Shown here: positions 1 to 25,187 of the stretch, piece by piece
Layout of the letters: each line of letters begins with the position of its first letter
Position numbering within the stretch: the first letter of the stretch is position 1
Assembly (NCBI GenBank): GCA_021432655.1
Contig: MU271336.1
Coordinates: 62,001 to 87,187, forward strand
Direction of reading: 5' to 3'
Source of the DNA: Atractiella rhizophila
Lineage: Eukaryota
Length of the DNA stretch: 25,187 nucleotides
The notes under the pieces: model-generated
The model's database searches: none
Told to the model about the DNA's origin: nothing
Seen by the model: the letters and a program-made list of their open reading frames with translations, nothing else
Translations under genes and position numbers: made by a program

Positions 1-2506
1 TCACAAATGTCCCTGCCTCAACAACTGAAGGAGGGCGGAAGAAGATGGTGCATCGACATTCCAGTGGGTTGTTTATTACCCAACGGAGATTGACCAATGA
101 CCCATTGACAGCTGTTGTCGAGCAATGTTACAAACTTTTGAAGATTTTCACCACGCATCCATTGCCACCGGAACATGTAGAAGAGCTTGCAGATGATGTT
201 CCAGGTGTTCCCAAGGACGAAATAGATGAACTAGAGTTACAAGGGGTTCGTTGCCATTCCAAACATCTTGATCTTACTGAAGAGAACACAGTGGGACTAT
301 CAAGGTCTCGCGGTGAGCACCAACTTGCATTTCTCCTCAGAGTTAAATAGCGTTGCGTAGGATGGCAAAGTGAGGACATACACGCGACGGCGAGCGGATC
401 GAGAGGAAGCAGCCGCCGACTTTCAATATTACCATCTAAACGAGGAGCATCGAGAGCATGATATGATGCCCTGGGTTAGAGGAGACGGCTGGATAGAAGG
501 GGATTGGAAGATCGCTGATGTTGTCGCCACAATTCGAAGCTACGACGCTCGCTCCACTTTTGATACTCGATTAGATTGTCCGAATTGCAAAGTGAAGGAA
601 ATCCTGAACGAAACCGACAACATCGTTCATATGCACTATCATGCGATTTTCCCAGTAGCTGCCCGTGATGGCGTTATTGTACTTAGTGAGGAGTGAGGGC
701 TTAACCGCTGAGGCTGGCATATGCTGATGCGATGACAGGGTCCACCCAGAACAATCGTTGGCTTACATCATCGCTCGATCGGTGGATGATGGTCTTATCC
801 CTCCCGATCCATCTACTTATCGGATGGCGACGCATATGATTGGCTGGGCAATCCGCAAATTACCCCATCCTCCTGAGTACGACGCACTCGCTCGAAGGAA
901 GGAAGCTTCATGTCGGCGTTCTTCGCAGCCAGCTCCTTCCCATCCGTCCTCTAGCAATGTACGAGCTCCCAGCTTCTCACATACTTCTCAACTTAGCGAC
1001 AAACGGCACTCGTCTTCATCTTCCTACAATCGACCTGTGATGCCCAGTCGAAGCTCCGGGTCATCCTCATCCTTTCAGTCTCTACGTCCACCAGCCCAGA
1101 CGCCGACGTCGCATCGGTCGTCGACCAACTCTTCTCGTCCTTCTTCGCTACGGAGCATGGGTATCTTGCCTAGTTTGAAGTCTCGGCCAAGCGCCTTCGG
1201 CAACAGGGCGTCCTCATTCAGCACTCAACCGCGTCCTCCTGCATTCCTAGGTGCGCCGCTAGCAAGGTCACAAACGACTCAGATCCCAGCGTCTACCCAC
1301 CATTCTTCTTTTTCATCTTCCTCCCCTCTCCCACCCATATCGCGTTCGGATTCGCCAGTCTCCGACACCTCAAGTGAAGAAGACCTTCCGCCCAAAGCAC
1401 CTGGTTTCCAGACAACATATCTTACCCGTCTAGATCCAGGGTCCACTAATCGTAGGTCCCTTTCCACCCACATCACTAGACTCATCTTTCGATCGTAGCC
1501 AACTCGTTCCAACGAGAGCTTTTTATGCGTCAGTCAGTCATCATCTCGCAGATGAACCTCTTCTTTCAAAAATATGGATTCGCTCCTTACTTACAGCGCG
1601 AAAATCGCAAACACGGTCTGGATTTAATAGACCAAATATTCGCGCCTCTAAAGGAGACCTATTCGGCGGTCTATAGATGTCATGAGGAGGTAGCTGGAGA
1701 AACCACGAAGATTCGTTTCTTTGGAAGCACTTTCGGCAATGGGAACTTCACTATAAGGGTTGTTAGAGCCACAGATTGGCACGTCGAGTTCGACAATCCT
1801 CCAGAAAATGTACAACTGGACCAACCGGCTCAGCCGACTATTGATGAAGAAGGATTTTACCTGCAGTCATCCATGACTTTCGAGAACCGTAGCCAGTCCA
1901 GTCTACCAGATAGTCTTACCCATACCCCAGATTCAAATAAAAAGCACCCCGGTCTCCCAGGATCCCTCGGTCCTTGCACTCTCGTGGTGAAGAACACAGT
2001 AATAGGAGTACCAATCCAAATCGTAATCGAAAGGACGAAAGAGAAGAAAAGCAAATCCAAAAAGCCAAACGGGCGAACTGGGAAGCGAGCAATGTCAGCG
2101 AAGCAGCTAGAGTCCGTCTGTCTTTCTGTCTTCATGCGGCCTGACTGACTTCTATGCCAGATTGCAATTGATCTCGGACGGACCTCAACCTTCGACAATA
2201 TCGAGAACGGGCAGCGTATCCGAGGTCTCGATAACGCACGCGAGATCTTCCAGCGTCTATCATTGTTCAACAAAGAGCCAACTTCCCCCCGAGACCGCCG
2301 TCCATATCGACTTAACGACCCCTTCAGCCCAATCAGCAGCGCCTCCACTTCATCCCGCGTCAGTCCCGTCAGCAAGAGCTCGCAACCTTCATCCTCTACT
2401 GAATCATCGATCAGCCCTCTATCGGCACTATCCAGGAAGCTGTTGGGATCAGTTGCTTCTACAGCTCTGACTTCGCCTTCGAATACTCCAGACAGGTTCT
2501 CTGGCA
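1..2506 (+). CDS. Hypothetical multi-exon protein with long Ser/Pro-rich tracts; open at the window edge and truncated by the N gap; possible frameshift near 235-241
   Basis: ORFs 370-696, 758-1498, 1525-2148 and 2263+ join in frame across introns 313-360, 693-738, 1452-1498 and 2116-2160 (e.g. VLSEE|VHPEQSLAY, TNPNSFQRELFMRQ, QLES|IAIDLGRT). The 5'-most frame (45-240) does not join cleanly. No family recognised. Confidence 0.6.
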
Positions 2507-2987
2507 NNNNNNNNNNNNNNNNNNNNNNNNNNNNNNNNNNNNNNNNNNNNNNNNNNNNNNNNNNNNNNNNNNNNNNNNNNNNNNNNNNNNNNNNNNNNNN
2601 NNNNNNNNNNNNNNNNNNNNNNNNNNNNNNNNNNNNNNNNNNNNNNNNNNNNNNNNNNNNNNNNNNNNNNNNNNNNNNNNNNNNNNNNNNNNNNNNNNNN
2701 NNNNNNNNNNNNNNNNNNNNNNNNNNNNNNNNNNNNNNNNNNNNNNNNNNNNNNNNNNNNNNNNNNNNNNNNNNNNNNNNNNNNNNNNNNNNNNNNNNNN
2801 NNNNNNNNNNNNNNNNNNNNNNNNNNNNNNNNNNNNNNNNNNNNNNNNNNNNNNNNNNNNNNNNNNNNNNNNNNNNNNNNNNNNNNNNNNNNNNNNNNNN
2901 NNNNNNNNNNNNNNNNNNNNNNNNNNNNNNNNNNNNNNNNNNNNNNNNNNNNNNNNNNNNNNNNNNNNNNNNNNNNNNNNNNNNNNN
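2507..2987. other. Assembly gap (481 N)
   Basis: Run of N seen directly. Confidence 1.
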
Positions 2988-3611
2988 AGGGCGACTTCAT
3001 CCCATGATATCGCCAACCCAGAGATGACGCATGTGAAAACCTTTATATAGGTGGCAAATACAAACCCCATCTCGTAGGCCAAGCAGAGAAACAGAAGGAA
3101 GAAGGTAGGAAAAAAACAGGGTTACTGCTACGACTAGTAAACCCCCGTTATCTAATGTATCCTTCTCAGGGGCAATAGTAGTAGCCTTACGAACCTGAGA
3201 GGAAATGGAGAGAACGGAAGCCCTGTAGCTGGTGGTAACGAGCGTAGTAGAAGTGTGCGAAGAAACCACGCATAGATAGATGGAGGGGAAGAGACAGAGA
3301 CAATAACTATTCCACTGACTAAACCTACGACCCTAACCTGTCAACCCTATAAGCGGCCTTATCAACCGCAGGACGTAAGGTATCAACCGCTTGAACGTAG
3401 AGTTCTTCCGACCGCCTGACAGAAGGGGAAGATACTGCACTACCGGCGAGAACCAGAGTAAGATCCCAATCAAAGGTAAGCGAAGCTAATCGTTAAGACG
3501 CTCGACGTCCTTCAACTATCACTTTTGTCTGGTGACTAACCGCCCTTGGACCATAGAGGTCTACATCTGTGCCCTTATAAATTTTGAATGGGGAAAGGAG
3601 GAGGGGACGGA

Positions 3612-6758: not shown

Positions 6759-8912
6759 ATGTCCGGAATGGAGAACCCCCTGTCGAATATTTCCAGCAAG
6801 TCTGATGATCTTCAAATTGTCGAGGGAGAGGATCATCTTCGCAATAGTCATGATAATCATTCGGTTGATGCTACGAGGGAGGATAAGCGAAAAGGTCACG
6901 GCATGCGAGGAGTGCAGGTACTGAGGGAGGCGTTTCAGTTTGAATTTAGGGAGTGGACTTGTTTTGCTGTTTTGGCTGGTGAGGTGCGTTCTTTGCTTCC
7001 CGCGAAGCAGAATTCCTATATATCCTTAATTAATATTTCCAGTTGTTGGCCTTGGTGCAAACGATGGGTGATTGACAACAGTCATTGGTCATAGTTGCAG
7101 GTTTGGGTGACGGGAGCGCAGGAGCGCTGATTCCTTAGTTAGTCCCTCTACCTCTTCTCATCCTGATTTGTGCTCTGCGTCTCTTATAACTATGCCACTA
7201 ACAGCATCCAATCGTATTTCCACGTCTCTCACTCCGCCGTCTCCCTCATCTTTGTGACCCAAACCGTTGGCTACCTTCTCGCCTCATTCTCAAACAATTA
7301 CCTAACTGATACGCTGGGCATGGAGCTCGTGCGTCTCTCCTACATCCATCCACACCGCAATGTACAAGGCTTAACGGAATCGATGGAACAGGTGATAGTC
7401 TGGGGTGCCCTGCAGCAATCCCTCGTGGGTCCCTTCTCTCCACCCAACAAAGCAGACGATACCGAATAATGACCGTCCTGTAACCAAAAGAGCTACGCCC
7501 TCCTCGTCCCCTCCTTCCACTTCTCCCTCCTCCTCGTTCTCAACCTCTTCATCGGTTTCGGGGTCTGCATCCAAGACTCCGCCGCCTCCGTCTACGTCGG
7601 CTCTCGCCCCAATTCCAAGAACGCAAAATGGAAAATCTCCCTTCTGGAAACTTGTTATGGAGCCGGTGCCCTCGTTGGACCGTTTTTGGCAACGTTGATT
7701 GTGCAGAGTGGCGCTAGGTGGAGCTTCTTTTATATCGTGCAGGCTGCTGCTTGTGCTGTTAATGTTGGATTGTTGTGGGCGAGCTTCAGGTACGTTTTGG
7801 CAGGGAATGGAGGGGCTATGACCGATGGGGTTTTAGACCTAAGTTTAAGATGGGGAGGGGAGCGAAGGAAGGGAGCGGAGAAAGGAAGAAAGAGCAGGAA
7901 GAGGAAGGGGATCATTTGCACAAATTAAAAAGTACCTTGCGTAATAAACACGTCTGGTCTCTGTCTTCTTTCCTTCTTCTTATGGTTGGAGCGGAAGTCT
8001 CCATCGCTGGTACGCGAACTTCTTTGCTTTCCTTTCGTCGAAATTTGTCCAAGTTGACGATCTGTACGTTCAGGTTGGATCGTCTCTTTCCTCATCGAAG
8101 AACGTCATGGTTCCTCATCGTTTGTCTTCCATCCTTTGCGTCCCATGCATGCCTCATTGACAAGGGTCAACTATCCAGCGCAGGATATGTCGCCACAGGA
8201 TTCTGGTCTGGTTCGCTCTCCTTCAGTGCCCCCGTCCTCCAATCTCAACCTTTTTCTGATGTAACAGGAGTGATGCTTGGCCGCCTACTCTCTCCCAAAC
8301 TGAATGGGTGGATAGGGGAGAAAAAGGTAGTGTTTTACTACATCAGCCTCGCTTTCTCCCTCGAATTTGTCGTCTGGTTCCTCCCCAACCTGCCTGGTAA
8401 CGCCATCGCCGTCTCTTTCATTGGGTTGCTCATTGTTCGTCTTCCCTTGTCTTTTTCCTGCTAGATGCAGATGGCGTCACGGAATAGGGACCAATGTATC
8501 CTCTGGCGTTGAATGTCGCGTTCAATCGCCTCCCGCGAGCCTTGCACGCAGGCTCCATATCTTTTATGACATCCATGGGACAAACGGGTGCGCTCTCCAC
8601 TCCCTGAGTCTGCACACGATTGAAGCCTCTGGTGTCTGATATAGGCGCTGCTATATTCCCCTTCCTCACTGGTACACTCGCGCAACGATTCTGTGAGTGT
8701 GCCCATTATATCATTCAATGATACGTGCTCGAGTTCCTGATAAGCGGATGATGGGCGAAGCGGTCAATGTGTTGCAACCGATGATGCTCGTCCTCTTTGT
8801 CCTTATGGCAGCTGCTTGGACGCTCGTTCCTGCACCACGACCCAGCGTGAGAGACCCAGAGGCGGAGACGGACGGAGAGTGTGTGCAAATGGAAGATAGC
8901 ATGGCTGTATAG
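6759..8912 (+). CDS. MFS transporter, Bsc6/FucP-like, more than 10 introns
   Basis: Spliced product contains GLGDGSAGALIP.IQSYFHVSHSAVSLIF, CYGAGALVGPFLAT, GAEVSIAGWIVSFLIEER, GYVATGFWSGVMLGRLL, GPMYP and GQTGAAIFPFLTGTLAQ, typical of this MFS subfamily. Confidence 0.88.
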
Positions 8913-9089
8913 GCTCGTCTCTTGTTTCATGGTCTGTTATATTCTAGATGATATTTTGAATGGTATATCAATGGAGCAAAGGTTAGACATAAAATACACG
9001 GAACATGTGTGTGCGATACAGACTTGCGAAAGTCCAAAATGCCAAGAAAACGCTTGCATATCCAAACCCTAGACCTCATTATCCTCTCC

Positions 9090-10168
9090 TCATAACTTGG
9101 ATTGACCTGTTTTTCCATCAGCGAGATCTGGGAAAGGTTGATACGAAATGACTCACCTCCTTCCTCCAGCTGCAAAAACAAATCCTTCAATCCCTTGATT
9201 CCTCTGGAAGCGTGTTGAGACACTGTCTCCTTCTCTACTCTCAGTAGACTATCATTGAAGACCTCCAAGCTCCAATCGCCATCGTAACCCGTCTCCTTAA
9301 CAACCTTCGAGAACTCGATGACGGGTAAATACGCTCCAAGGTCCGTCTCGAGAGGAAACAGGCGATGAGATCTCGACCAAGGTCTGAGGGGAGGGATTGA
9401 CGGATCTTCGGGAGGGAGGAGGGGAGGAGACATGAGTTTAGCGTCTGCGACCTGGTATATGAAGATCTTCTCCTTCGGTATCGTCCTGCTCAACTCCCTG
9501 AGCGACGCACGCAAGCTCTCGTCCGCCTTTTCTTGCTTTCCGCTGATCGAATATGGGTCCGCCCACTCCCTGGCCAACGAGTTGAAGCTGTCGAGACATA
9601 TTCCGACGTTGTCTCGGTTCGTCATCCTGATGACATCCCAAGTCTGCTTCCAAGTGCTCACCCTCGTTCCCCAGCTCAGACCTTCGTAAGCCAATCTACA
9701 AGGCGGTTGGAGCTCGGCAAGCCGGTCAGCGAGCCATGTGAGGTCTTTCACTGCTTCTTGGGGGGATGAATGGAGGACGTTAGCGGGGGAAGTGTTGGAA
9801 GGGACAAGGAGGAGGTCAGTCCCTAGATGCGGGAGGAGGATGTAGAACTTTCGAGCGCGCTCGTACGCGTCTTTCTTCTTCTCAGAATCCATCCATCCCT
9901 CGAAGTCACGCAGGGGCTGCAGGCAGCTGATCTTCAGTCCTGCCTGTTTGACGAGAGAACCAACTTCCTGTGCGGCGGCGATGGCAGTGGAGTCTTCGTC
10001 CTCGTCCTGCCCTTTTGAGTGGGCGTACGACTTTAGAAAGGCGAACCAGTCGTTGTCGAAGAGTTCAATGGAGCTGAATCCGGCGCTGGACGCTGCTTGG
10101 ATCTTCGCTTGGAGGGAATGTGAGTGGCAGTCTCCAAGTGAGAGGGAGGCAATTCCGAGCAGTGGCAT
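9090..10168 (-). CDS. qutC: 3-dehydroshikimate dehydratase (QutC/Qa-4 type, xylose-isomerase-like TIM barrel), 342 aa, one intron at 9156-9107, C-terminal SKL
   Basis: Motifs IASLSLG, KI.AA..AGF..IELF, LQPLRDFEG, AYEGLSWG, GICLDSFN, YQVADA, PWSRSHRLFP, WSLEVFN. Divergent from a quinate permease. GTGAGT...CTGAT...CAG intron gives ...LEEGGQSKL*. Confidence 0.85.
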
Positions 10169-10492
10169 TTCGAACGTCGATGTCGCTGATCGATTGACGC
10201 TGCTCTAAATATTGTATGTTTGGGGCGATAAACTGAAGGGAAGCCATCGAGTTTATCACTTCTTGCTTGGCTGGATGAAAGCTCTTGACCGACTTGAAAG
10301 TTCTTCCACCACCCCGGGGTGCGATAAACTTTCTTCCACCTCCCCAGCGCCAAAAAATTGCTGCGACCATCTTTGACATTGACTCGGAGGAGCTCTTCAT
10401 TTAGTTCAGTGGAGTCTTTATCATCCATCTGGGGCACATATAAGTGGTGCATCAGCGAACCAACTTCAGCCCACTGCTACCTGATATCCATC
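10169..10492. promoter_or_regulatory. Compact bidirectional promoter shared by qutC-like and qutD-like genes (second copy at 13227-13550)
   Basis: 324 bp between divergent ATGs (10168 minus, 10493 plus); contains several GATAA/TTATC words. Confidence 0.7.
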
Positions 10493-12860
10493 ATGAGGTT
10501 CAGCATTCAGGAAGACCCAAGGGTGAGTCCAGTTCGACATCCCCAACGGTTCAAATTTGCAGAGCAGCTGACGCTGAAAGTACTAGACTCCAAAAGATGT
10601 CTACAACTGGCGCGTATATCTCAGCGCAATTGTAGCAGGCTGTGGAGCACTGCTCTTTGGCTACGACTCCGCCTTCATCGGCTCGTACGTTGCTCTTTTA
10701 CCTAGCATTGCCCAAATAAATGTGGACCCCTGTTTACAGATTACTCTCTCTCCCATCCTTCCGCCGACAATTTGGACTGGACACGTTGTCTACTAAAGAA
10801 TACGCCGACACGAGCGCAAACATCGTCTCTATCTTCCAAGCTGGATGTTTCTTTGTACGCTTCCTTCTCCTTGCGCGAAGATGACGAGTATGAACGAGCT
10901 TCGGATTAAAGGGTGTAATATTCGCTTATCCGTGGGGAGAACGCTTTGGACGTCGAAGCGTCATAGCTGGAGCTGCCGTGCTTTTTGTCGTTGGGTCCAT
11001 CATACAACTTGTCTCGAGGAGTCTCGCCCCATTTTACCTCTCGAGGGTGCTGAACGGACTCGCTGTTGGCGGAATCACGTAAGTCTCCTCTCTCCAAAGT
11101 ATCGGTCTCTAGCGGCACTAACTAATAACATTGCAGCCTGGCGTGCCCAATTTAGTAGGCCAATTCCCAGACTTCTTTGGCTGTCATTGATGTGCATATT
11201 CACTTTAGCATCGCTGAAATTGCGCCTCCCGCCATTCGAGGACAGCTCATCGGCTTCTACGAGGTGGCATACCAAGTTGCTGCCCTCCTCGGGTTCTGGG
11301 TATGTTTCGTTTCTCCTCTCCTCTTAAACTATCTCATACCTCGCCAACACAAATCAACTACGGTGTCAACAAGCACATGTCTCCCAAAGGAGATTCGCAA
11401 TGGATGGTCCCCGTATCAATCCAACTCATCCCAGGGGGCCTCCTCTTCGTTTGTTTCTTCCCCTTTCTCCGTCTCTATTTCCTGATCAACAAGAACAGAT
11501 TGGCACCTTCTTCATCCCCGAAAGCCCACGTCAACTCGCAAAAAGAGGCAACTACCCAAAAGCCCTCACCTCACTCTCCTGGTTGAGGAACCTTCCACAA
11601 GATCACAGCTATGTGAACGAGGAGCTCTTCCAGATTCGTCAACAGATCGAACATGAGACCATGGGCTTGGCAGGACAGAAGAGCGGCGCCAGAAGGCTGT
11701 TTGTTGCGCAGGTGAAGGAGTTGGGTAAGAAGGGAATCTACAACCGTCTCATCGTTGGTTCGCTTTTGATGCTGTACCAAAATGCGACCGGAATCAATGC
11801 TAGTTCGTTTCCCTCTTTTCTTCCAAATGACGCGGAGCTGATACTACATCTCAGTCAATTATTGCAAGTCCCCCCATTATCACTTCCATATTGCGTTCTA
11901 ATATCCGTCATAACCAAAATATAGACAGTCCGTGCGTTGGTAAGCTCCACAAAAAGATGCCTAGCTAATGACAAATTCAGAACCATCTTCAAAAGCATAG
12001 GTGTGACGGGAACGAACGCAGGTCTCTTTGCGACAGGAATCTACGGGGTTGTACGTGCTTTCCTGCTTTCCACCTTCCTTACTCACCAAATACACAAAGG
12101 TTAAACTAGTCAGCTCACTCATTTTCCTCCTCTTCCTCATCGATCGAGTCGGTCGACGGCTTCCCCTTCTCATCGGTGGAACGTGAGCCAACCCGTCATC
12201 GATTTGACGTGCGATTATTGACTCTCGTATGTAGCGCCTCCTGCCTTTGCCTCTACTACATCGGCGCCTACATCAAGATCGCAAATCCTCAACCTGTCGC
12301 CGGCGCAACTCCAGACTCAGCTGGCATTTCGGCGATCGCCATGCTCTACATCTTCGTAATATTCTACTGTGCATCCATCAATGGTATCGCGTGGATCTAC
12401 AAGTATGCCTTTCCGTTATAAGTGAAGTGTTATTTCCGTGCTCACCGACTCTCGTCATTGCAGTGGAGAGCTGTTCCCGACGAATATTCGTGGACTGTGC
12501 GCCGTAGTGACCACTTGCTTCCAATGGATCGGACAATTCGCAATCACTCGAGCGACGCCGTACATGTTCGAATCTTTCAAATCATATGGACCGTTCCTGT
12601 TCTTTGGATCATGTACTCTGGTTGGAACAACGTGGGTATATTTCTTCATTAAGGAAACGAAGGGGGTCTCGCTGGAGGACATGGACAAGCTCTGGGGTTA
12701 CGACCGCTCTGCAACCAATGGCGGAAGAGAGGTGAACGACGGAGAGAGAAAGGAAGTGAGGGAAGATGAAGAAGCAAAGAGCATGTCGATGTCTTCAAGC
12801 TCAGACGCCTGGGAGAAAGAGCAGGAAGAGCGAGTGGAAGGCTCGAAGATGGAAGCGTAG
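10493..12860 (+). CDS. qutD: Quinate permease (sugar-porter MFS), copy 1, 13 introns; intron-6 acceptor mutated
   Basis: Spliced N-terminus MRFSIQEDPRTPKDVYNWRVYLSAIVAGCGALLFGYDSAFIG matches the QutD/Qa-Y EDRPTPxxVYNWRVY...GYDSAFIG signature. Also YIAEIAPPAIRG, PESPR, GINAINYYSPTIF, IDRVGRR, ELFPTNIR, ETKGVSLE. Confidence 0.88.
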
Positions 12861-13014
12861 AAAATAAACCAGCTCATAAAGGCTTATGTGCATGTACATC
12901 CATTGAAGAAAAATCGTATATCAATTCCATGAGTAACCGCACCCGTTTCGAGACGAGTAGATTTGCACAAAGCTTTGGATAAATTCAATTTCGACTTGAA
13001 CTGTGGATATTCTC

Positions 13015-13143
13015 TCATCCTTGAGCAGCGAGAGCGTCTCTCGTAGCAGTCCACGCTTGCTTCTTGTTATAATTTTCATCGTAAAGCAGCGCAGCACCAT
13101 AACCAGAAAACGTGCTCGGGATCCAAGAATATTTGTCTGTGAC
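13015..13143 (-). pseudogene. Orphan duplicate of the GH10 xylanase last exon
   Basis: Matches 16073-16201 ([42 protein letters not shown]); no upstream exons. Confidence 0.92.
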
Positions 13144-13145
13144 CT

Positions 13146-13226
13146 TCAGAGATTGGTAATCTTCGCTTGGAGGGAATGTGAGTGGCAGTCTCCAAGTGAG
13201 AGGGAGGCAATTCCGAGCAGTGGCAT
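13146..13226 (-). pseudogene. Duplicated 5' stub of the dehydratase ([26 protein letters not shown])
   Basis: 13159-13226 equals 10101-10168; the frame stops just past the junction. Confidence 0.92.
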
Positions 13227-16215
13227 TTCGAACGTCGATGTCGCTGATCGATTGACGCTGCTCTAAATATTGTATGTTTGGGGGCGATAAACTGAAGGGA
13301 AGCCATCGAGTTTATCACTTCTTGCTTGCCTGGATGAAAGCTCTTGACCGACTTGAAAGTTCTTCCACCACCCGAGGTGCGATAAACTTTCTTCCACCTC
13401 CCCAGCGCCAAAAAATTGCTGCGACCATCTTTGATATTGACTCGGAGGAGCTCTTCATTTAGTTCAGTGGAGTCTTTATCATCCATCTGGGGCACATATA
13501 AGTGGTGCATCAACGAAGCAACTTCAGCCCACTGCTACCTGATATCCATCATGAGGTTCAGCATTCAGGAAGACCCAAGGGTGAGTCCAGTTTGACATCC
13601 CCAACGGTTTAATTTGCAGAGCAGCTGACGCTGAAAGTACTAGACTCCAAAAGATGTCTACAACTGGCGCGTATACCTCAGCGCAATTGTAGCAGGCTGT
13701 GGAGCTCTGCTCTTTGGCTACGACTCCGCCTTCATCGGCTCGTACGTTGCTCCTTTACCTAGCATTGCCCAAATAAATGTGGATCCCTGTTTGCAGGTTA
13801 CTCTCTCTCCCATCCTTCCGCCGACAATTTGGACTGGACACTTTGTCTACTAAAGAATACGCTGACACGAGCGCAAACATCGTCTCGATCTTCCAAGCTG
13901 GATGTTTCTTCGTACGCTTCCTCCTCTTTGCACGAAGATGACCTGTATTAAAGAGCTTCGGATGACAGGGTGTAATCTTCGCTTATCCGTGGGGAGAACG
14001 TTTCGGACGTCGAAGCGTCATAGCTGGAGCTGCCGTCCTTTTTGTCGTTGGGTCCATCATACAACTTGTCTCGAGAAGTCTCGCCCCATTTTACCTCTCG
14101 AGGGTGCTGAACGGACTCGCTGTTGGCGGAATCACGTAAGTCTCCTCTCTCCAAAGTATCGGTCTCTAGCGTCACTAACTGATAACATTGCAGCCTGGCG
14201 TGCCCAATTTAGTAGGCTAATTTCCCAGACTTCTTTGGCTGTCATTGATGTGCATATTCACTTTAGCATCGCTGAAATTGCGCCTCCTGCCATTCGAGGA
14301 CAGCTCATCGGCTTCTACGAGGTGGCATACCAAGTTGCTGCCCTCCTCGGGTTCTGGGTATGTTTCGTTTCTCCTCTCCTCTTACAGTATCTCATACCTC
14401 GCCTACACAGATCAACTACGGTGTCAACAAGCACATGTCTCCCAAAGGAGATTCGCAATGGATGGTCCCCGTATCAATCCAACTCATCCCAGGTGGCCTC
14501 CTCTTCGTTTGTTTCTTCCTCTTTCTCCGTCTCTATTTCCTGATCAACAAGAACAGATTGGCACCTTCTTCATCCCCGAAAGCCCACGTCAACTCGCAAA
14601 AAGGGGCAACTATCCAAAAGCCCTCACCTCACTCTCTTGGTTGAGGAACCTTCCACAAGATCACAGCTATGTGAACGAGGAGCTCTTCCAGATTCGTCAA
14701 CAGATCGAACATGAGACTATGGGCTTGGCAGGACAGAAGAGTGGTGCGAGAAGGCTGTTTGTTGCACAGGTGAAGGAGCTGGGTAAGAAGGGAATCTACA
14801 ACCGTCTCATCGTTGGTTCGCTTTTGATGCTGTACCAAAATGCGACCGGAATCAATGCTAGTTCGTTTCCCTCTTTTCTTCCAAATGACGCGGAGCTGAT
14901 ACTACATCTCAGTCAATTATTGCAAGTCCCCCCATTATCACTTCCATATTGCGTTCTAATATCCGTCATAACCAAAATATAGACAGTCCGTGCGTTGGTA
15001 AGCTCCACAAAAAGATGCCTAGCTAATGACAACTTCAGAACCATCTTCAAAAGCATAGGTGTGACGGGAACGAACGCAGGTCTCTTTGCGACAGGAATCT
15101 ACGGGGTTGTACGTGCTTTCCTGCTTTCCACCTTCCTTACTCACCAAATACACAAAGGTTAAACTAGTCAGCTCACTCATTTTCCTCCTCTTCCTCATCG
15201 ATCGAGTCGGTCGACGGCTTCCCCTTCTCATCGGTGGAACGTGAGCCAACCCGTCATCGATTTGACGTGCGATTATTGACTCTCGTATGTAGCGCCTCCT
15301 GCCTTTGCCTCTACTACATCGGCGCCTACATCAAGATCGCAAATCCTCAACCTGTCGCCGGCGCAACTCCAGACTCAGCTGGCATTTCGGCGATCGCCAT
15401 GCTCTACATCTTCGTAATATTCTACTGTGCATCCATCAATGGTATCGCGTGGATCTACAAGTATGCCTTTCCGTTATAAGTGAAGTGTTATTTCCGTGCT
15501 CACCGACTCTCGTCATTGCAGTGGAGAGCTGTTCCCGACGAATATTCGTGGACTGTGCGCCGTAGTGACCACTTGCTTCCAATGGATCGGACAATTCGCA
15601 ATCACTCGAGCGACGCCGTACATGTTCGAATCTTTCAAATCATATGGACCGTTCCTGTTCTTTGGATCATGTACTCTGGTTGGAACAACGTGGGTATATT
15701 TCTTCATTAAGGAAACGAAGGGGGTCTCGCTGGAGGACATGGACAAGCTCTGGGGTTACGACCGCTCTGCAACCAATGGCGGAAGAGAGGTGAACGACGG
15801 AGAGAGAAAGGAAGTGAGGGAAGATGAAGAAGCAAAGAGCATGTCGATGTCTTCAAGCTCGGACGCCTGGGAGAAAGAGCAGGAAGAGCGAGTGGAAGGC
15901 TCGAAGATGGAAGCGTAGAAAATAAACCAGCTCATAAAGGCTTATGTGCATGTACATCCATTGAAGAAAAATCGTATATCAATTCCATGAGTAACCGCAC
16001 CCGTTTCGAGACGAGTAGATTTGCACAAAGCTTTGGATAAATTCAATTTCGACTTGAACTGTGGATATTCTCTCATCCTTGAGCAGCGAGAGCGTCTCTC
16101 GTAGCAGTCCACGCTTGCTTCTTGTTATAATTTTCATCGTAAAGCAGCGCAGCACCATAACCAGAAAACGTGCTCGGGATCCAAGAATATTTGTCTGTGA
16201 CCTTCAGAGATTGGT
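13159..16215 (+). repeat. Tandem segmental duplication, unit 2 (3,057 bp)
   Basis: Collinear with 10101-13157, separated by a single A at 13158. Confidence 0.97.
13551..15918 (+). CDS. qutD: Quinate permease, copy 2, apparently intact, 13 introns
   Basis: Same exon structure and, by manual comparison, same protein as copy 1; all acceptors are AG, including CACAG at 14410. Confidence 0.9.
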
Positions 16216-17637
16216 TTGGTTAGAAACGCGGAGTGTCGCATGAGAGAAAGAGAGGACCGTACCCCCCACACCGTGATGGAGACGCATTGAGGACAAGCAT
16301 TGACAACATCTCTATAATTCGTGGCTTGCAGCGCGTCGTTCCTCGCACTGGTCTGCTGACGGATATCCAGCTCGGTGATTGCCACTTGTAGGCCTAACGC
16401 TGAGAAACGAGCAAGGTTGGCTTTGAGCGTGCTCGGTATTTGACCATTGATAAAGTGGGATTGGAACCCGATGCCATCGAGAGGAACACCTGTCACAGGG
16501 AAAGGTATGACATTGCGCGATTGTTAGAAAGCAAAATGCACCTTTGGCTTGGAGCTGTTTCACGACGTTGTACAATCCATCTGATTTCGCATTCTGTCCT
16601 TCGATGTTATCTGTACAAACATTAGAGTCAAAGGCGGCTCCTTCCGAAAGTGAACACACAATCGTTGATACTGCGAATTGCTCCGTCAAGCACTGTTTAC
16701 GTTGGTTGGACGGGGAGGACGTACTACAGCTTCGCCGCGGGATCAGCAGCCCTACATCTCCGTTGTTATATGTTGCAGGAAGAGATAAAAGGGAAAAACC
16801 TGGCATAAGTCAAGGATTTCGTAAAGAGGTCGATTCCGAAGGCCCTACTCCAAATGGTGTCCTTAATGGCGCCGTTCTCTTCAATGTGTTCATTCTAAAA
16901 TAAAAACGAGACCAATTTCTTTTAACCTGCAAAATGGTGGAACAGAAACACGAACGACGACATCCCAGGCGTATATTTTCCCCTAGACGCAGGATTAAGT
17001 ATGTATGATCATTGCGGGGAAAGAAGGGATGTGCAACCTTGTAGTGCGTCATCACTTGAGTGATGTGATTCTTTAAGGCCGCATCCAGCTGACTCGCGCT
17101 CAGACCGCTTACCCAAGAAGGGAGCTGGTTAGCCCAGACGAATCTGTTTTATTCATTAAGAGCAAACTCAGGTCATCTGCAGTACACGACTAGACGTACG
17201 TGTGACCTCTGACCTTCGCTCCGTTGTTCAAAGCAAAACTAGTTTCACCCGTCAAAGAAGGGCAAGAGGGAAGCTACTGAGACATACTTGACGATGTTAT
17301 CCGCTGCCGCGAAGTTGAACACACCTTGCTGAGGCTCCGTCGCGTCCCATTTCATCTCGTTCTATAAGGTCAAGCTTTAGCAAAACGAAACAAAGGCAGA
17401 CAAAAAGTTCTAGGGAGTAGTGTGAAGGAACACTGCGGGCTTGCTTACCTCTGGAGTGAAGATATTAAAGTCCCTAGCCGCAGTTGTGGCATAGGCGGAC
17501 TCGGAGAGGTGAGAATTAGCGATTGCTGCTCCGACATAAGGCGAAGCTCCAGCAGCAGCCTTCAAGGTCGTGGCTTGACGTTTCTGGTTCGGGACGACCG
17601 TGGCCGTGGCGAGAGCAAGGATGGAGAACAAAAGCAT
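16073..17637 (-). CDS. Secreted GH10 endo-1,4-beta-xylanase, 11 exons, no CBM
   Basis: Signal peptide [12 protein letters not shown]. Spliced motifs [28 protein letters not shown] (acid/base Glu), [25 protein letters not shown] (nucleophile Glu), ITVWGVTDKYSW. All 10 introns are GT-AG and in frame. Confidence 0.95.
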
Positions 17638-22770: not shown

Positions 22771-24618
22771 ATGAGCAAAAATTTGAGGAAAAATCGCCGT
22801 AATGCGGTTGAGGAGGCAAGAGAGGCCGCTCGAAACTACAACGTCCTAGAACAACATCCAGCTACAATACAGCCTGCCCCATTCTCTTCAGAGCAAATTC
22901 ATCAAATTCATGTGGACCTAGCTATAGAAGTTCGGCCAGTGTATGACTTCTGCCAGCTCCTTCGTGTTGATTATACTCCGAACCGATTCCTCGAGCTTCC
23001 CCATTATCTTAATCTTATAAACGAAGCAATCCAACAATATTCATCACTGAAGGAACAACTACCGCATGACTCTATATTCATACCAAACCTTTTACGCCTT
23101 AATGAGCTTCAAGACCAGCTGGCACTTCTTGAGACGGGTGTGCATAGATTAGGCCCAAAGAAGTGTACATGGGTTATGGGAGAGAATGGACGAAAGGTGC
23201 TTGACATTGATCAAGATACAGTGGAATTCTATCTGAAGGAAGCTTGGGATGATGAGTGAAGAGATTGCGACTGAGCTTGGTGTCTCTGAAAAAACTATCG
23301 ATTGCCGGCGCAAGGAATGGGGATTGACACAAGACATTCTTAAGAATCCTGTCAGCGAAGACGTTCTCACCTATGTCATTTCAAAACTGTTATCCTCTGG
23401 CGATCGATACATTGGACTTCGAGGTATTATTGGAGCCCTCAACAGTATGAAGGTCCCTTTTCGTCACCGAGTTCTACAAGCAGTTATGCGCCGCCTCAAT
23501 CCTGTCGGCGTGGCAGAGCGATGGGGTGCCACAATAGAGAGGAGAGTTTATTCAGTTCCTTTCCCTATGTCTCTATGGCACATTGATGGTAGGTTCCTTT
23601 TCCCTTTATTCTTCACATAAGCTGATATTCTAACAGGTTATGCAGCATTAATTAACTGGAAATTCATTGTTCATGGCAGAATTGACGGCAAAAGTCGCCT
23701 TATCGTTTACCTCAAGGTGGCCAACAACAATCGAGCTGAAACTGTCCTAAGCTCATTCTGGACAGCCTGTAGGACGTGGGGTATTCCAAGTCGATGTCGA
23801 GCAGATTTTGGAGGGGAGAATACATTAGTGAAGCTGTTTATGGAAGTTCTTAGAGGCACCGAGCGAGGTAACCACTTTTTGCTTCTTAACTATGGATGTT
23901 GAGTTATTGATTGTCCAGGTTCCATGCTTCTTGGATCATCAACACGTAATCAGCGGATTGAACGACTTTGGAGAGACATCTGGAACTGGGTGATTCGAGG
24001 TTATTATGTTCTTTTTACTTTTATGGAAGAAACAGGTGTCCTAAATCGTGAAAATCCCCTTCATCTTTGGGCACTACATTATGTCTTTCTCCCTCGGATT
24101 CAGTCATCATTGGATCATTGCGTACAAATGTGGAACAATCACCCCATGTCTAGAGAGGGGTAGCCGGACACCTTTACAAATTTATTATCGAGGTAGTCAT
24201 TCATCCTTCTTTCAATACATGGACTGACAACTTATCCTATCTCCCATTTATAGGCTTGCTACATGCCAAAAATGCCGGCTTTTCAATTAATCTCGAAGAT
24301 GAACAGATTGGGAGAAAGAATGATGATCTGCAACCTGATATTCAGACTGCGCGCCTTACAGACTTTGCAGAATACGGTATTGATTACGAGTTTTTGCAAC
24401 AGCGAGAGTGGAATGAAGAAGATCCTTACATTCACATTGGTCCGATCCCAGATTTCCTGACCACAGATGAATATACATGGCTAACTCATACTGTTCCGGT
24501 AGGAGGTAGAAGGGCTGATGATAGGATGGGGCTTGGCCCTTATTTGGAGGTGATCGAATGCCTTGACATTATACGTGAGCATCAAAGGAGCTCATCTCAA
24601 CTCATTAATCAATTGTAG
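22771..24618 (+). pseudogene. Integrase-core DDE transposase with HTH, 3 introns and two +1 frameshifts
   Basis: HTH EEIATELGVSEKTIDCRRKEWGL. Core RRVYSVPFPMSLWHIDG, HGRIDGKSR, NNNRAETV, PSRCRADFGGEN, GSSTRNQRIERLWRD, WNNHPM. Frameshifts near 23242 (EAWDDE* vs LGMMSEE) and in the G-run 24157-24160 (REG* vs SRTPLQIY). Confidence 0.85.
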
Positions 24619-24680
24619 CAATTTTCCGATACAGAATAAATAAATAATATCATTGCAGCTAATTGTTTAGTTATCACCAG

Positions 24681-25187
24681 TCAGAGTTCCTCCTCTTCAT
24701 ATGAGCCGTCTCGCAAGCGATCAAAGGCCCTGTGCGCTCTTCCTTCAAATGATGGGTACGCAATACGACCATAGGGGGTGCTGGCCTTTCTGATTTTGTC
24801 TGCCTCAGCATAGTCAACATCTTTATCAGCGGCAATGAGTTGAATAATTGTCTCAGTAACCAGTGCCTGTTCAAGTAGGAAAAACTGCTTGTCCATCACT
24901 TCTTTTGACCGTGTCCCTCCCCTTTCAACTATAAGCCAGTTGGTCAGATGGTCAGTAATAACTTCTTCTCCTCGTTTTCCATAACTGCAACAAGTCACAA
25001 TAAGCAAGCAGGAAAACTCGTAGAACGGCATCACGTACTATCCCGGTCCATCATCTCCATTAACCACATTGGCCAATTTGATACCTGTCTTCCTACCCTC
25101 AACGCTATTGTATTGATCCTCTGCATTGTCGAGAAGCCGAGAGGGTGTCTTTTTGAGCAAGATATTGTTGAGATGGGGTTTGAGCTC
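24681..25187 (-). CDS. C-terminal part of an RTC4-like domain protein, intron 25038-24985
   Basis: Spliced PGYYGKRGEEVI...FLLEQALVTETIIQLIAADKDVDYAEADKIRKASTPYG fits the RTC4 pattern GYYG.RG...VL.PE....LI..D.....A......S..YG. Confidence 0.7.

Follow-up and report, generated by a model that had tools for sequence, protein, structure and literature searches.

A gene on the minus strand of Atractiella rhizophila contig MU271336.1 (10168..9090 in the 25,187-nt stretch of DNA analyzed here, hereafter the window) encodes a putative 3-dehydroshikimate dehydratase (DSD), and removal of its only intron gives the protein the C-terminus -SKL. This tripeptide fits the pattern [SAC][KRH][LM] of a type 1 peroxisomal targeting signal (PTS1) and closes the main translation product, directly before the TGA stop codon. 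The reading that we favor, if only somewhat, is that of a constitutively PTS1-tagged and probably peroxisomal dehydratase of the DSD type. Exon 1 would make the whole single-domain, metal-dependent TIM barrel, and routine removal of a conserved phase-1 intron would join to it a last exon of 17 nt that adds an unstructured -SKL tail. The resulting 342-aa form would be the main protein and would fold in the cytosol; PEX5 would then recognize its tail, and the folded, metal-bound enzyme would be imported into the peroxisomal matrix and convert 3-dehydroshikimate to protocatechuate there. Import into peroxisomes, the substrate and the source of that substrate are what we infer for the window protein.

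Structure and splicing of the dehydratase gene

Exon 1 is a single open frame from its ATG, and the stop-to-stop frame extends just 12 codons further upstream, so that 9156..9107 is the sole intron of the gene. Its donor, GTGAGT at 9156, follows the minus-strand codons ...CTG GAG GAA GGA G, and its 3′ end, ...AAAAACAG, carries a CAG acceptor at 9107; inside the intron, GCTGAT (9122-9117) is followed by a purine-rich stretch before the CAG. The final exon reads GT CAA TCC AAG TTA TGA (9106-9090; 17 nt counting the stop), with the SKL codons at 9101-9093 and the TGA at 9092-9090. Joining 9157 to 9106 completes the Gly338 codon and adds Gln-Ser-Lys-Leu before the stop.

The computed exon join yields 342 aa with the C-terminus LQLEEGGQSKL and is, letter for letter and over its full length, NCBI protein P0001 of Atractiella rhizophila, whose public name is ‘4-hydroxyphenylpyruvate dioxygenase’ (HPPD); a gene model with the intron 9156..9107 is already present in the public annotation. 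Without splicing, the frame stays open from 10168 to 8927 and encodes 413 aa ending in EYNRP. The original prediction, made from the sequence alone, had given this sole intron (9156-9107) with its splice signals, the spliced end ...EEGGQSKL and a retained frame to 8927 (413 aa, ending YNRP, without SKL). Coordinates and signals are as predicted when read from the sequence, the spliced end is confirmed by the identity of the computed join with P0001, and the retained frame is confirmed by the list of open reading frames (ORFs) and its computed translation.

Since 9 of 80 arbitrary GT-AG pairs in the 3′ region also yield an end of the type x[KRH][LMI], the DNA letters alone are weak evidence for the SKL end. 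Splicing is settled by RNA contigs that join across the intron. Contigs from four public runs among the records listed (X1, X2, X3 and X20) were mapped to 8700-10400, and the junction at 9156/9107, for which the original prediction had proposed a check in RNA data, is found exactly in X20 and X1. One 1093-nt contig of X20 passes from 9104 to 9155 with at least 255 letters on each side; it skips 50 letters, bounded by CT..AC on the plus strand, and the cut shifted by +2 corresponds to 9107..9156. X1 shows the same 50-nt junction, with 21 letters on the shorter side. In agreement with this, contigs of X2, a root metatranscriptome on record as RNA, end at 9108 and 9155, and by-eye comparison of their loose ends (10 and 16 letters) shows that they match the start of the other exon. 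Contigs of X3 cover 9228-10191 and stop short of the junction.

The depth in the bin 9099-9155 in X1, X2 and X20 is, by arithmetic, wholly accounted for by exon letters at both edges, and no listed contig of these three runs enters the interior of the intron. Neither X20 nor X1 is recorded as RNA, and X20 may underlie the gene model; because the genome itself contains the intron, their intron-less contigs can hardly be other than RNA. Thus, the intron is removed routinely and the -SKL mRNA is the main form.

A further skip was observed within the dehydratase coding region. At 9615-9674, 58 nt bounded by GT..AG on the plus strand are missing from one X20 contig (depth 12; its shorter side has 29 letters); this could be an assembly artefact or a haplotype deletion, or else an intron on the antisense strand.

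Recurrence of the intron and of PTS1-like ends in relatives

Trees were built from a HMMER search over 1.84 billion representatives (FastTree, 111 rows; a quick IQ-TREE, 67 rows). They place the window protein in a basidiomycete group (support 95 in FastTree and 92 in IQ-TREE) that is sister to a tight group of ascomycete proteins of ~385 aa. Together, the two form clade A, with a Shimodaira-Hasegawa-like (SH-like) support of 98 in FastTree and an SH approximate likelihood-ratio test (SH-aLRT) value of 92 in IQ-TREE. The large clade B stands apart with support of 99 in both trees and includes a UniRef-named DSD as well as P0331, a second protein of Atractiella rhizophila. P0263/P0372, the only source-named fungal DSD recovered, is placed in clade B. 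Sequences of the classical enzymes Qa-4 and QutC were not recovered by the family search. P0331 is represented by two near-identical NCBI records, is 347 aa long and ends in DEAAK without a PTS1; a homologue search started from it returned P0331 alone.

A scan of metagenome contigs, anchored on the conserved H-A-x-R-G-x-x-G-L motif, gave 24 loci, whose spliced ends were deduced by a rule that combines a strong donor, GT[AGC]NGT, with the first pyrimidine-AG acceptor at a distance of at least 40 nt. In the window, the donor lies 31 nt past the anchor and leads to the spliced end ..GGQSKL. The corresponding distance is 43 nt in the Rhodotorula-like loci L002/L003, where splicing makes the stop codon (..ERAGKI), in L018/L019 (..TSTQHKL) and in L007 (long hydrophobic tail), 52 nt in L005 (..SPRL) and 58 nt in L008 (..TTCA), and all of these donors are in phase 1. 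L006 has a GTACAT donor 31 nt past the anchor, by eye also in phase 1, and its hydrophobic tail is that of the annotated Gautieria protein P0044. No intron was found at this place in L001 (hydrophobic tail), L004 (..VARA) and six Sporobolomyces-like loci (L014-L017, L021 and L024; ..AGKA); the sequence of L023 is incomplete at the end. In ascomycetes, L009, L011, L012 and L013 each consist of one uninterrupted frame, with the ends SVL, SQK, SSL and SER, respectively. The presence of a phase-1 intron at a similar position in distant basidiomycete relatives makes it look like an old, inherited basidiomycete feature, with what comes after it varying by lineage.

The Agaricomycete-like loci L006, L007 and L001 (proteins P0036, P0044 and P0016) carry, instead of a PTS1, an extension of 40-60 aa with a hydrophobic, tail-anchor-like end. 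This extension comes after the phase-1 intron in L006 and L007 and is intron-less in L001.

As arbitrary GT-AG pairs often give PTS1-like ends also in the relatives (10 of 76 in L005 and 28 of 180 in L018), the ends deduced from their DNA are suggestive, not proof. They agree with annotated NCBI proteins of related yeasts, which end in HKL, PKL, SKL or GKL. Of the 120 top-ranking homologues of the window protein, 4 end in [SAC][KRH][LM], 37 more in x[KRH][LMI] and 11 in weaker PTS1-like tripeptides, and 68 have none of these; x[KRH][LMI] ends thus total 41 of 120, compared to 2.1% by composition. When the 120 top-ranking homologues are taken for an ascomycete clade A member instead, 85 have an x[KRH][LMI] end and 35 do not fit, the commonest ascomycete ends being HRL, GRL, SRL, EKL, QRL and SKI. 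A stricter published pattern (PMC4207609) is matched by 18 of the 120 close homologues, 34 of the 120 ascomycete sisters and 8 of 149 family-wide representatives, with 0.76% expected by composition. Since the rows are interrelated, these counts describe a clustering of the PTS1 trait in clade A and not independent events, and many of the ‘none’ rows derive from ORFs called without splicing, in which an end past an intron cannot be seen. The final micro-exon decides the predicted location, and the signal is lost when genes of this family are called without splicing or in prokaryote style.

In the AlphaFold2 model of the window protein, which has a mean predicted local distance difference test (pLDDT) score of 94.8, the last helix spans residues 314-335 and residues 338-342, which follow it, have a pLDDT below 50. 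The exon boundary therefore coincides with the close of the folded domain, and the SKL is predicted to sit on a free, accessible C-terminal tail. With PTS1-like ends recurring far above chance and the tail predicted to be unstructured, peroxisomal targeting is a reasonable interpretation and the PTS1 is probably functional. The signal belongs to a clade-wide, though not universal, trait that seems not to have been described before.

In the ascomycete locus L012 (3-3930), a shikimate-dehydrogenase-like frame ending in ..STSKL adjoins the clade A frame (..KSSL), and a convergent family III CoA-transferase (CoA, coenzyme A) ends in ..SPSKL. Three adjacent PTS1-type ends are very unlikely to have arisen by chance. 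This locus provides the strongest hint of clade A working in a peroxisomal module, and the trio may represent a peroxisomal gene cluster of an unassigned pathway.

Several observations weigh against a peroxisomal enzyme. The residues EEGGQ before the SKL are acidic or neutral, which is not optimal for PEX5, and many of the counted ends (HRL, HKL and GRL) fall outside the stricter pattern. Assembled contigs, from which rare variants are dropped, leave room for a minor form that retains the intron. Moreover, part of the basidiomycete group lacks PTS1-like ends. The original prediction had named conservation of the intron and of SKL-like ends in orthologues as a check, and this holds in part: the phase-1 intron and PTS1-like ends do recur in relatives, but the ends are missing in L008 (P0007, the closest relative), L004 (ARA), the six Sporobolomyces-like loci (GKA) and the loci with hydrophobic tails (L001, L006 and L007). 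In the qa-like cluster of L008, the dehydratase ends in TCA and the dehydroquinase in AAG, neither of which is a PTS1. Finally, we found no localization or enzyme data for clade A members in open-access papers and preprints.

Another explanation is an enzyme whose -SKL is present and unused, with the tripeptides of its relatives drifting without function. Such an enzyme would be cytosolic, as the qa/qut enzymes are regarded to be. The missing ends in L008 and several basidiomycete lineages and the lack of basic residues upstream of the SKL speak for this explanation, as does the fact that no other pathway enzyme in the window has a PTS1. We nevertheless consider it unlikely, as PTS1-like ends exceed the expectation from composition 15- to 40-fold in two phyla, the model shows a free tail, and the three neighbors in L012 all end in SKL, SSL or SKL.

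Protein family, predicted activity and isoforms

The window protein matches the Pfam family PF01261 (xylose-isomerase-like TIM barrel) over residues 23-321 with an E-value of 7.3e-23. Its top match in the Protein Data Bank (PDB) is QuiC1 of P. putida (5HMQ), both by sequence (phmmer E 2.6e-27) and by structure (Foldseek E 1.4e-25, template modeling score 0.72); the next Foldseek entry is IolI (1e-16), and AsbF is found at rank 27. The closest Atlas cluster bears the automatic name 3-dehydroshikimate dehydratase (score 0.98). The sole NCBIfam match, with 126 bits, is to the N-terminal DSD half of QuiC (NF042435).

The active site of QuiC1 is formed by R64, L97, E134, L136, D165, H168, Q191, S206, R210 and E239 (PMC7442255), residue numbers which are two lower than those of the QuiC1 chain in our alignment. 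These sites map to R87, L121, E162, L164, D193, N196, Q239, S265, R269 and E302 of the window protein. Thus, 9 of the 10 residues are kept, namely the metal ligands E134, D165, Q191 and E239 together with R64, L97, L136, S206 and R210, whereas H168 is replaced by Asn. This 9/10 pattern with Asn at the position of His168 is shared by each of the nine clade A rows in a 19-member family alignment, and the UniRef-named fungal DSD P0263 has Asn there as well. P0331 has His at this position and differs at three other active-site positions.

In contrast to the two-domain bacterial QuiC1, the window protein is a single-domain protein without the C-terminal HPPD-like domain; it is also eukaryotic, with insertions of ~60 residues and the PTS1 end. 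Its public name is a misnomer that stems from the bacterial two-domain proteins. As single-domain fungal enzymes of the family, Qa-4 of N. crassa, QutC of A. nidulans and DsdA of A. niger are likewise comparable, and the linkage of their genes to those for quinate dehydrogenase, dehydroquinase and quinate permease (PMC12610400) has a counterpart in the relatives L008 and L019. The source-named fungal DSD P0263/P0372 differs from the window protein in belonging to clade B. Open-access papers and preprints yielded neither a peroxisomal location for Qa-4, QutC or DsdA nor a report of any peroxisomal dehydroshikimate dehydratase.

We infer that 3-dehydroshikimate dehydratase is the best-supported activity of the window protein. 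The original prediction had named it as such, and the DSD-like TIM barrel and the active-site residues are in line with this, with the Asn at H168 as the part that does not fit. Other points weigh on the same side as this Asn. The score of 126 bits falls far below the cut-off of 1200 for the QuiC equivalog, a 635-aa two-domain bacterial model, and the protein is therefore not a QuiC equivalog. No quinate dehydrogenase or dehydroquinase gene was found in the window. In A. niger, dsdA is induced 40-fold by quinate and its paralogue NRRL3_07603, which may or may not belong to clade A, is silent (PMC12610400).

Clade A proteins could be peroxisomal without being DSDs, with a different cyclitol or a keto-sugar as substrate or with a role in a CoA-linked pathway. 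Besides the Asn in all clade A rows examined and the A. niger paralogue that does not respond to quinate, this alternative draws on the CoA-transferase neighbor in L012, on oxidoreductase neighbors in L009 and L013 and on the fact that no characterized clade A member was found. Moreover, the xylose-isomerase-like TIM-barrel fold also houses isomerases and epimerases. On the other side, clade A keeps more of the DSD active site than clade B members such as P0331 do, and QuiC1 leads the structural matches by a wide margin (E 1e-25 compared to 1e-16 for the next). In addition, L008, which is closest in the trees, lies in a qa-like cluster between a gene for dehydroquinase II (DHquinase_II) and a shikimate/quinate dehydrogenase gene (beginning with Shikimate_dh_N). 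We regard a non-DSD activity as having a small, though not negligible, chance of being correct.

Cryptic PTS1 isoforms that arise by alternative splicing or readthrough are known from Ustilago maydis (Freitag 2012) and, for Gnd1, from Candida albicans (Strijbis 2012), both cited in PMC4207609. The dehydratase gene shares with the Ustilago type a PTS1 past an intron near the 3′ end, in a gene for a metabolic enzyme of a basidiomycete. There, however, two isoforms exist and the PTS1 form is the minor one, whereas the assembled contigs of the dehydratase gene contain the PTS1 form alone; its stop codon is followed by GG and not placed in the UGA-CU readthrough context (PMC4207609). The likeness to Ustilago goes no further than the placement of the signal past an intron: the contigs of X20, X1 and X2, in which rare variants are lost on assembly, show no coexisting isoforms with and without the PTS1 junction, and no alternative isoform is conserved among the relatives, whose retained tails differ in length and sequence.

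The original prediction went further and proposed that the intron could switch the enzyme between peroxisome and cytosol, a claim that is not borne out, as the three runs with contigs at the junction yielded only the spliced form and no coverage of the intron interior. Regulated retention of the 50-nt intron, by which one gene would supply the cytosol with a 413-aa isoform and the peroxisome with the -SKL isoform, would fit the open retained frame that loses SKL, the use of alternative splicing for peroxisomal isoforms in fungi (PMC4207609) and the intron just ahead of the signal in L018/L019 and L005, but it is highly improbable given that the tails produced by retention are conserved neither in length (+76 aa in the window, different in L002, L005 and L019) nor in sequence, that in L018/L019 (~2646-2750 in L019) both the spliced end ..QHKL and the unspliced end ..SRSRL would be PTS1-like, that the ascomycete sisters encode the signal without an intron, and that Atractiella has the PTS1-less paralogue P0331. 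A two-compartment arrangement, if there is any, could rest on paralogues and not on splicing.

Gene neighborhoods and a possible peroxisomal branch

Quinate and shikimate catabolism is a textbook pathway whose enzymes share intermediates with the biosynthetic pathway in the same cell. In fungi, the separation of the two pathways is explained mainly by regulation and by channeling in the AROM complex. A constitutively PTS1-tagged dehydratase of the DSD type raises the possibility of a peroxisomal branch of shikimate/quinate-type catabolism that has gone unrecognized in fungi, a joint reading which we put forward tentatively and hold to be possible rather than probable. Clade A would then be a PTS1 cargo across Ascomycota and Basidiomycota, standing in L012 beside a PTS1-bearing dehydrogenase-like protein and a PTS1-bearing CoA-transferase, and protocatechuate would be formed from dehydroshikimate inside peroxisomes, beside the hydroxycinnamate route. 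The basidiomycete phase-1 intron would be a seam at which lineages swapped the C-terminal address, be it a PTS1, a hydrophobic tail anchor or none.

A peroxisomal site for protocatechuate is not far-fetched, because its formation in peroxisomes has already been proposed for R. toruloides, a related Pucciniomycotina yeast (PMC7873862). PTS1 enzymes ending in AKL, ARL, SKL or ASL are proposed to take part in a peroxisomal route from hydroxycinnamates to protocatechuate and its relatives in R. toruloides (PMC7873862) and A. niger (PMC8140964). This route is β-oxidation-like and begins with CoA esters of cinnamic acids; the accessible parts of these papers place no dehydroshikimate dehydratase in it. 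If the joint reading is true, a widespread PTS1-bearing, DSD-like family would add physical compartmentation to the picture of quinate and shikimate metabolism and would link it to the proposed peroxisomal formation of protocatechuate from plant hydroxycinnamates. It would also hint at where the root endophyte Atractiella processes plant-derived cyclitols and aromatics.

The coordinates of the dehydratase gene and of its neighbors are listed in the table. An Atlas search with an exon of the divergent transporter gene returned the generic name ‘Sugar transporter’ alone; L019 likewise has a divergent Sugar_tr gene. L002, L004, L015 and L016 have a squalene epoxidase neighbor in common, which reflects synteny without functional meaning.

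Features of the dehydratase gene and adjacent genes in the window
Feature	Coordinates	Strand	Description and basis
Exon 1	9157..10168	-	ATG at 10168; 337 codons plus first base of codon 338; entire TIM barrel; ORF, PF01261
Only intron	9107..9156	-	50 nt, phase 1, GTGAGT...GCTGAT...CAG; sequence and RNA contigs
Last coding exon part	9090..9106	-	17 nt; end of Gly338, QSKL, TGA; same end as P0001
3′ untranslated region of spliced mRNA	8927..9089	-	covered by RNA contigs; retained-intron frame runs through it, stop at 8929-8927
Divergent sugar/quinate-type transporter gene	approx. 10720..12860	+	Sugar_tr pieces in several exons
Intron of convergent transcript	8693..8760	+	GTGAGT..AAG; X20 loose end maps to 8663-8692

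At 8663-8912, a convergent transcript on the plus strand was detected whose last intron is missing in the same X20 contig that lacks the dehydratase intron. As one contig lacks both introns, either the 3′ ends of the convergent genes overlap or the assembler merged them. MFS_1 pieces are found upstream in the region of the convergent gene, at 7473-7925.

A tandem duplication covers approximately 10313-16430 of the window; its period is 3057-3058 nt, and the identity is 97-98%. Within it lie the intergenic region by the dehydratase gene, two copies of the Sugar_tr gene (~10720-12860 and ~13780-15918) and, on the minus strand, fragments of a GH10 xylanase (13018-13311 and 16137-17148).

Further from the dehydratase gene, the region 2001-3000 has a G+C content of 26.8% compared to ~50% around it, with long frames on both strands (1857-3121) and no Pfam match. 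The right end of the window, which is also lower in G+C, carries an integrase core domain (PF24764, E 3e-28) at 23621-23899 on the plus strand and an RTC4-like domain at 24684-25037 on the minus strand, and this part (23621-25037) may be a mobile element.

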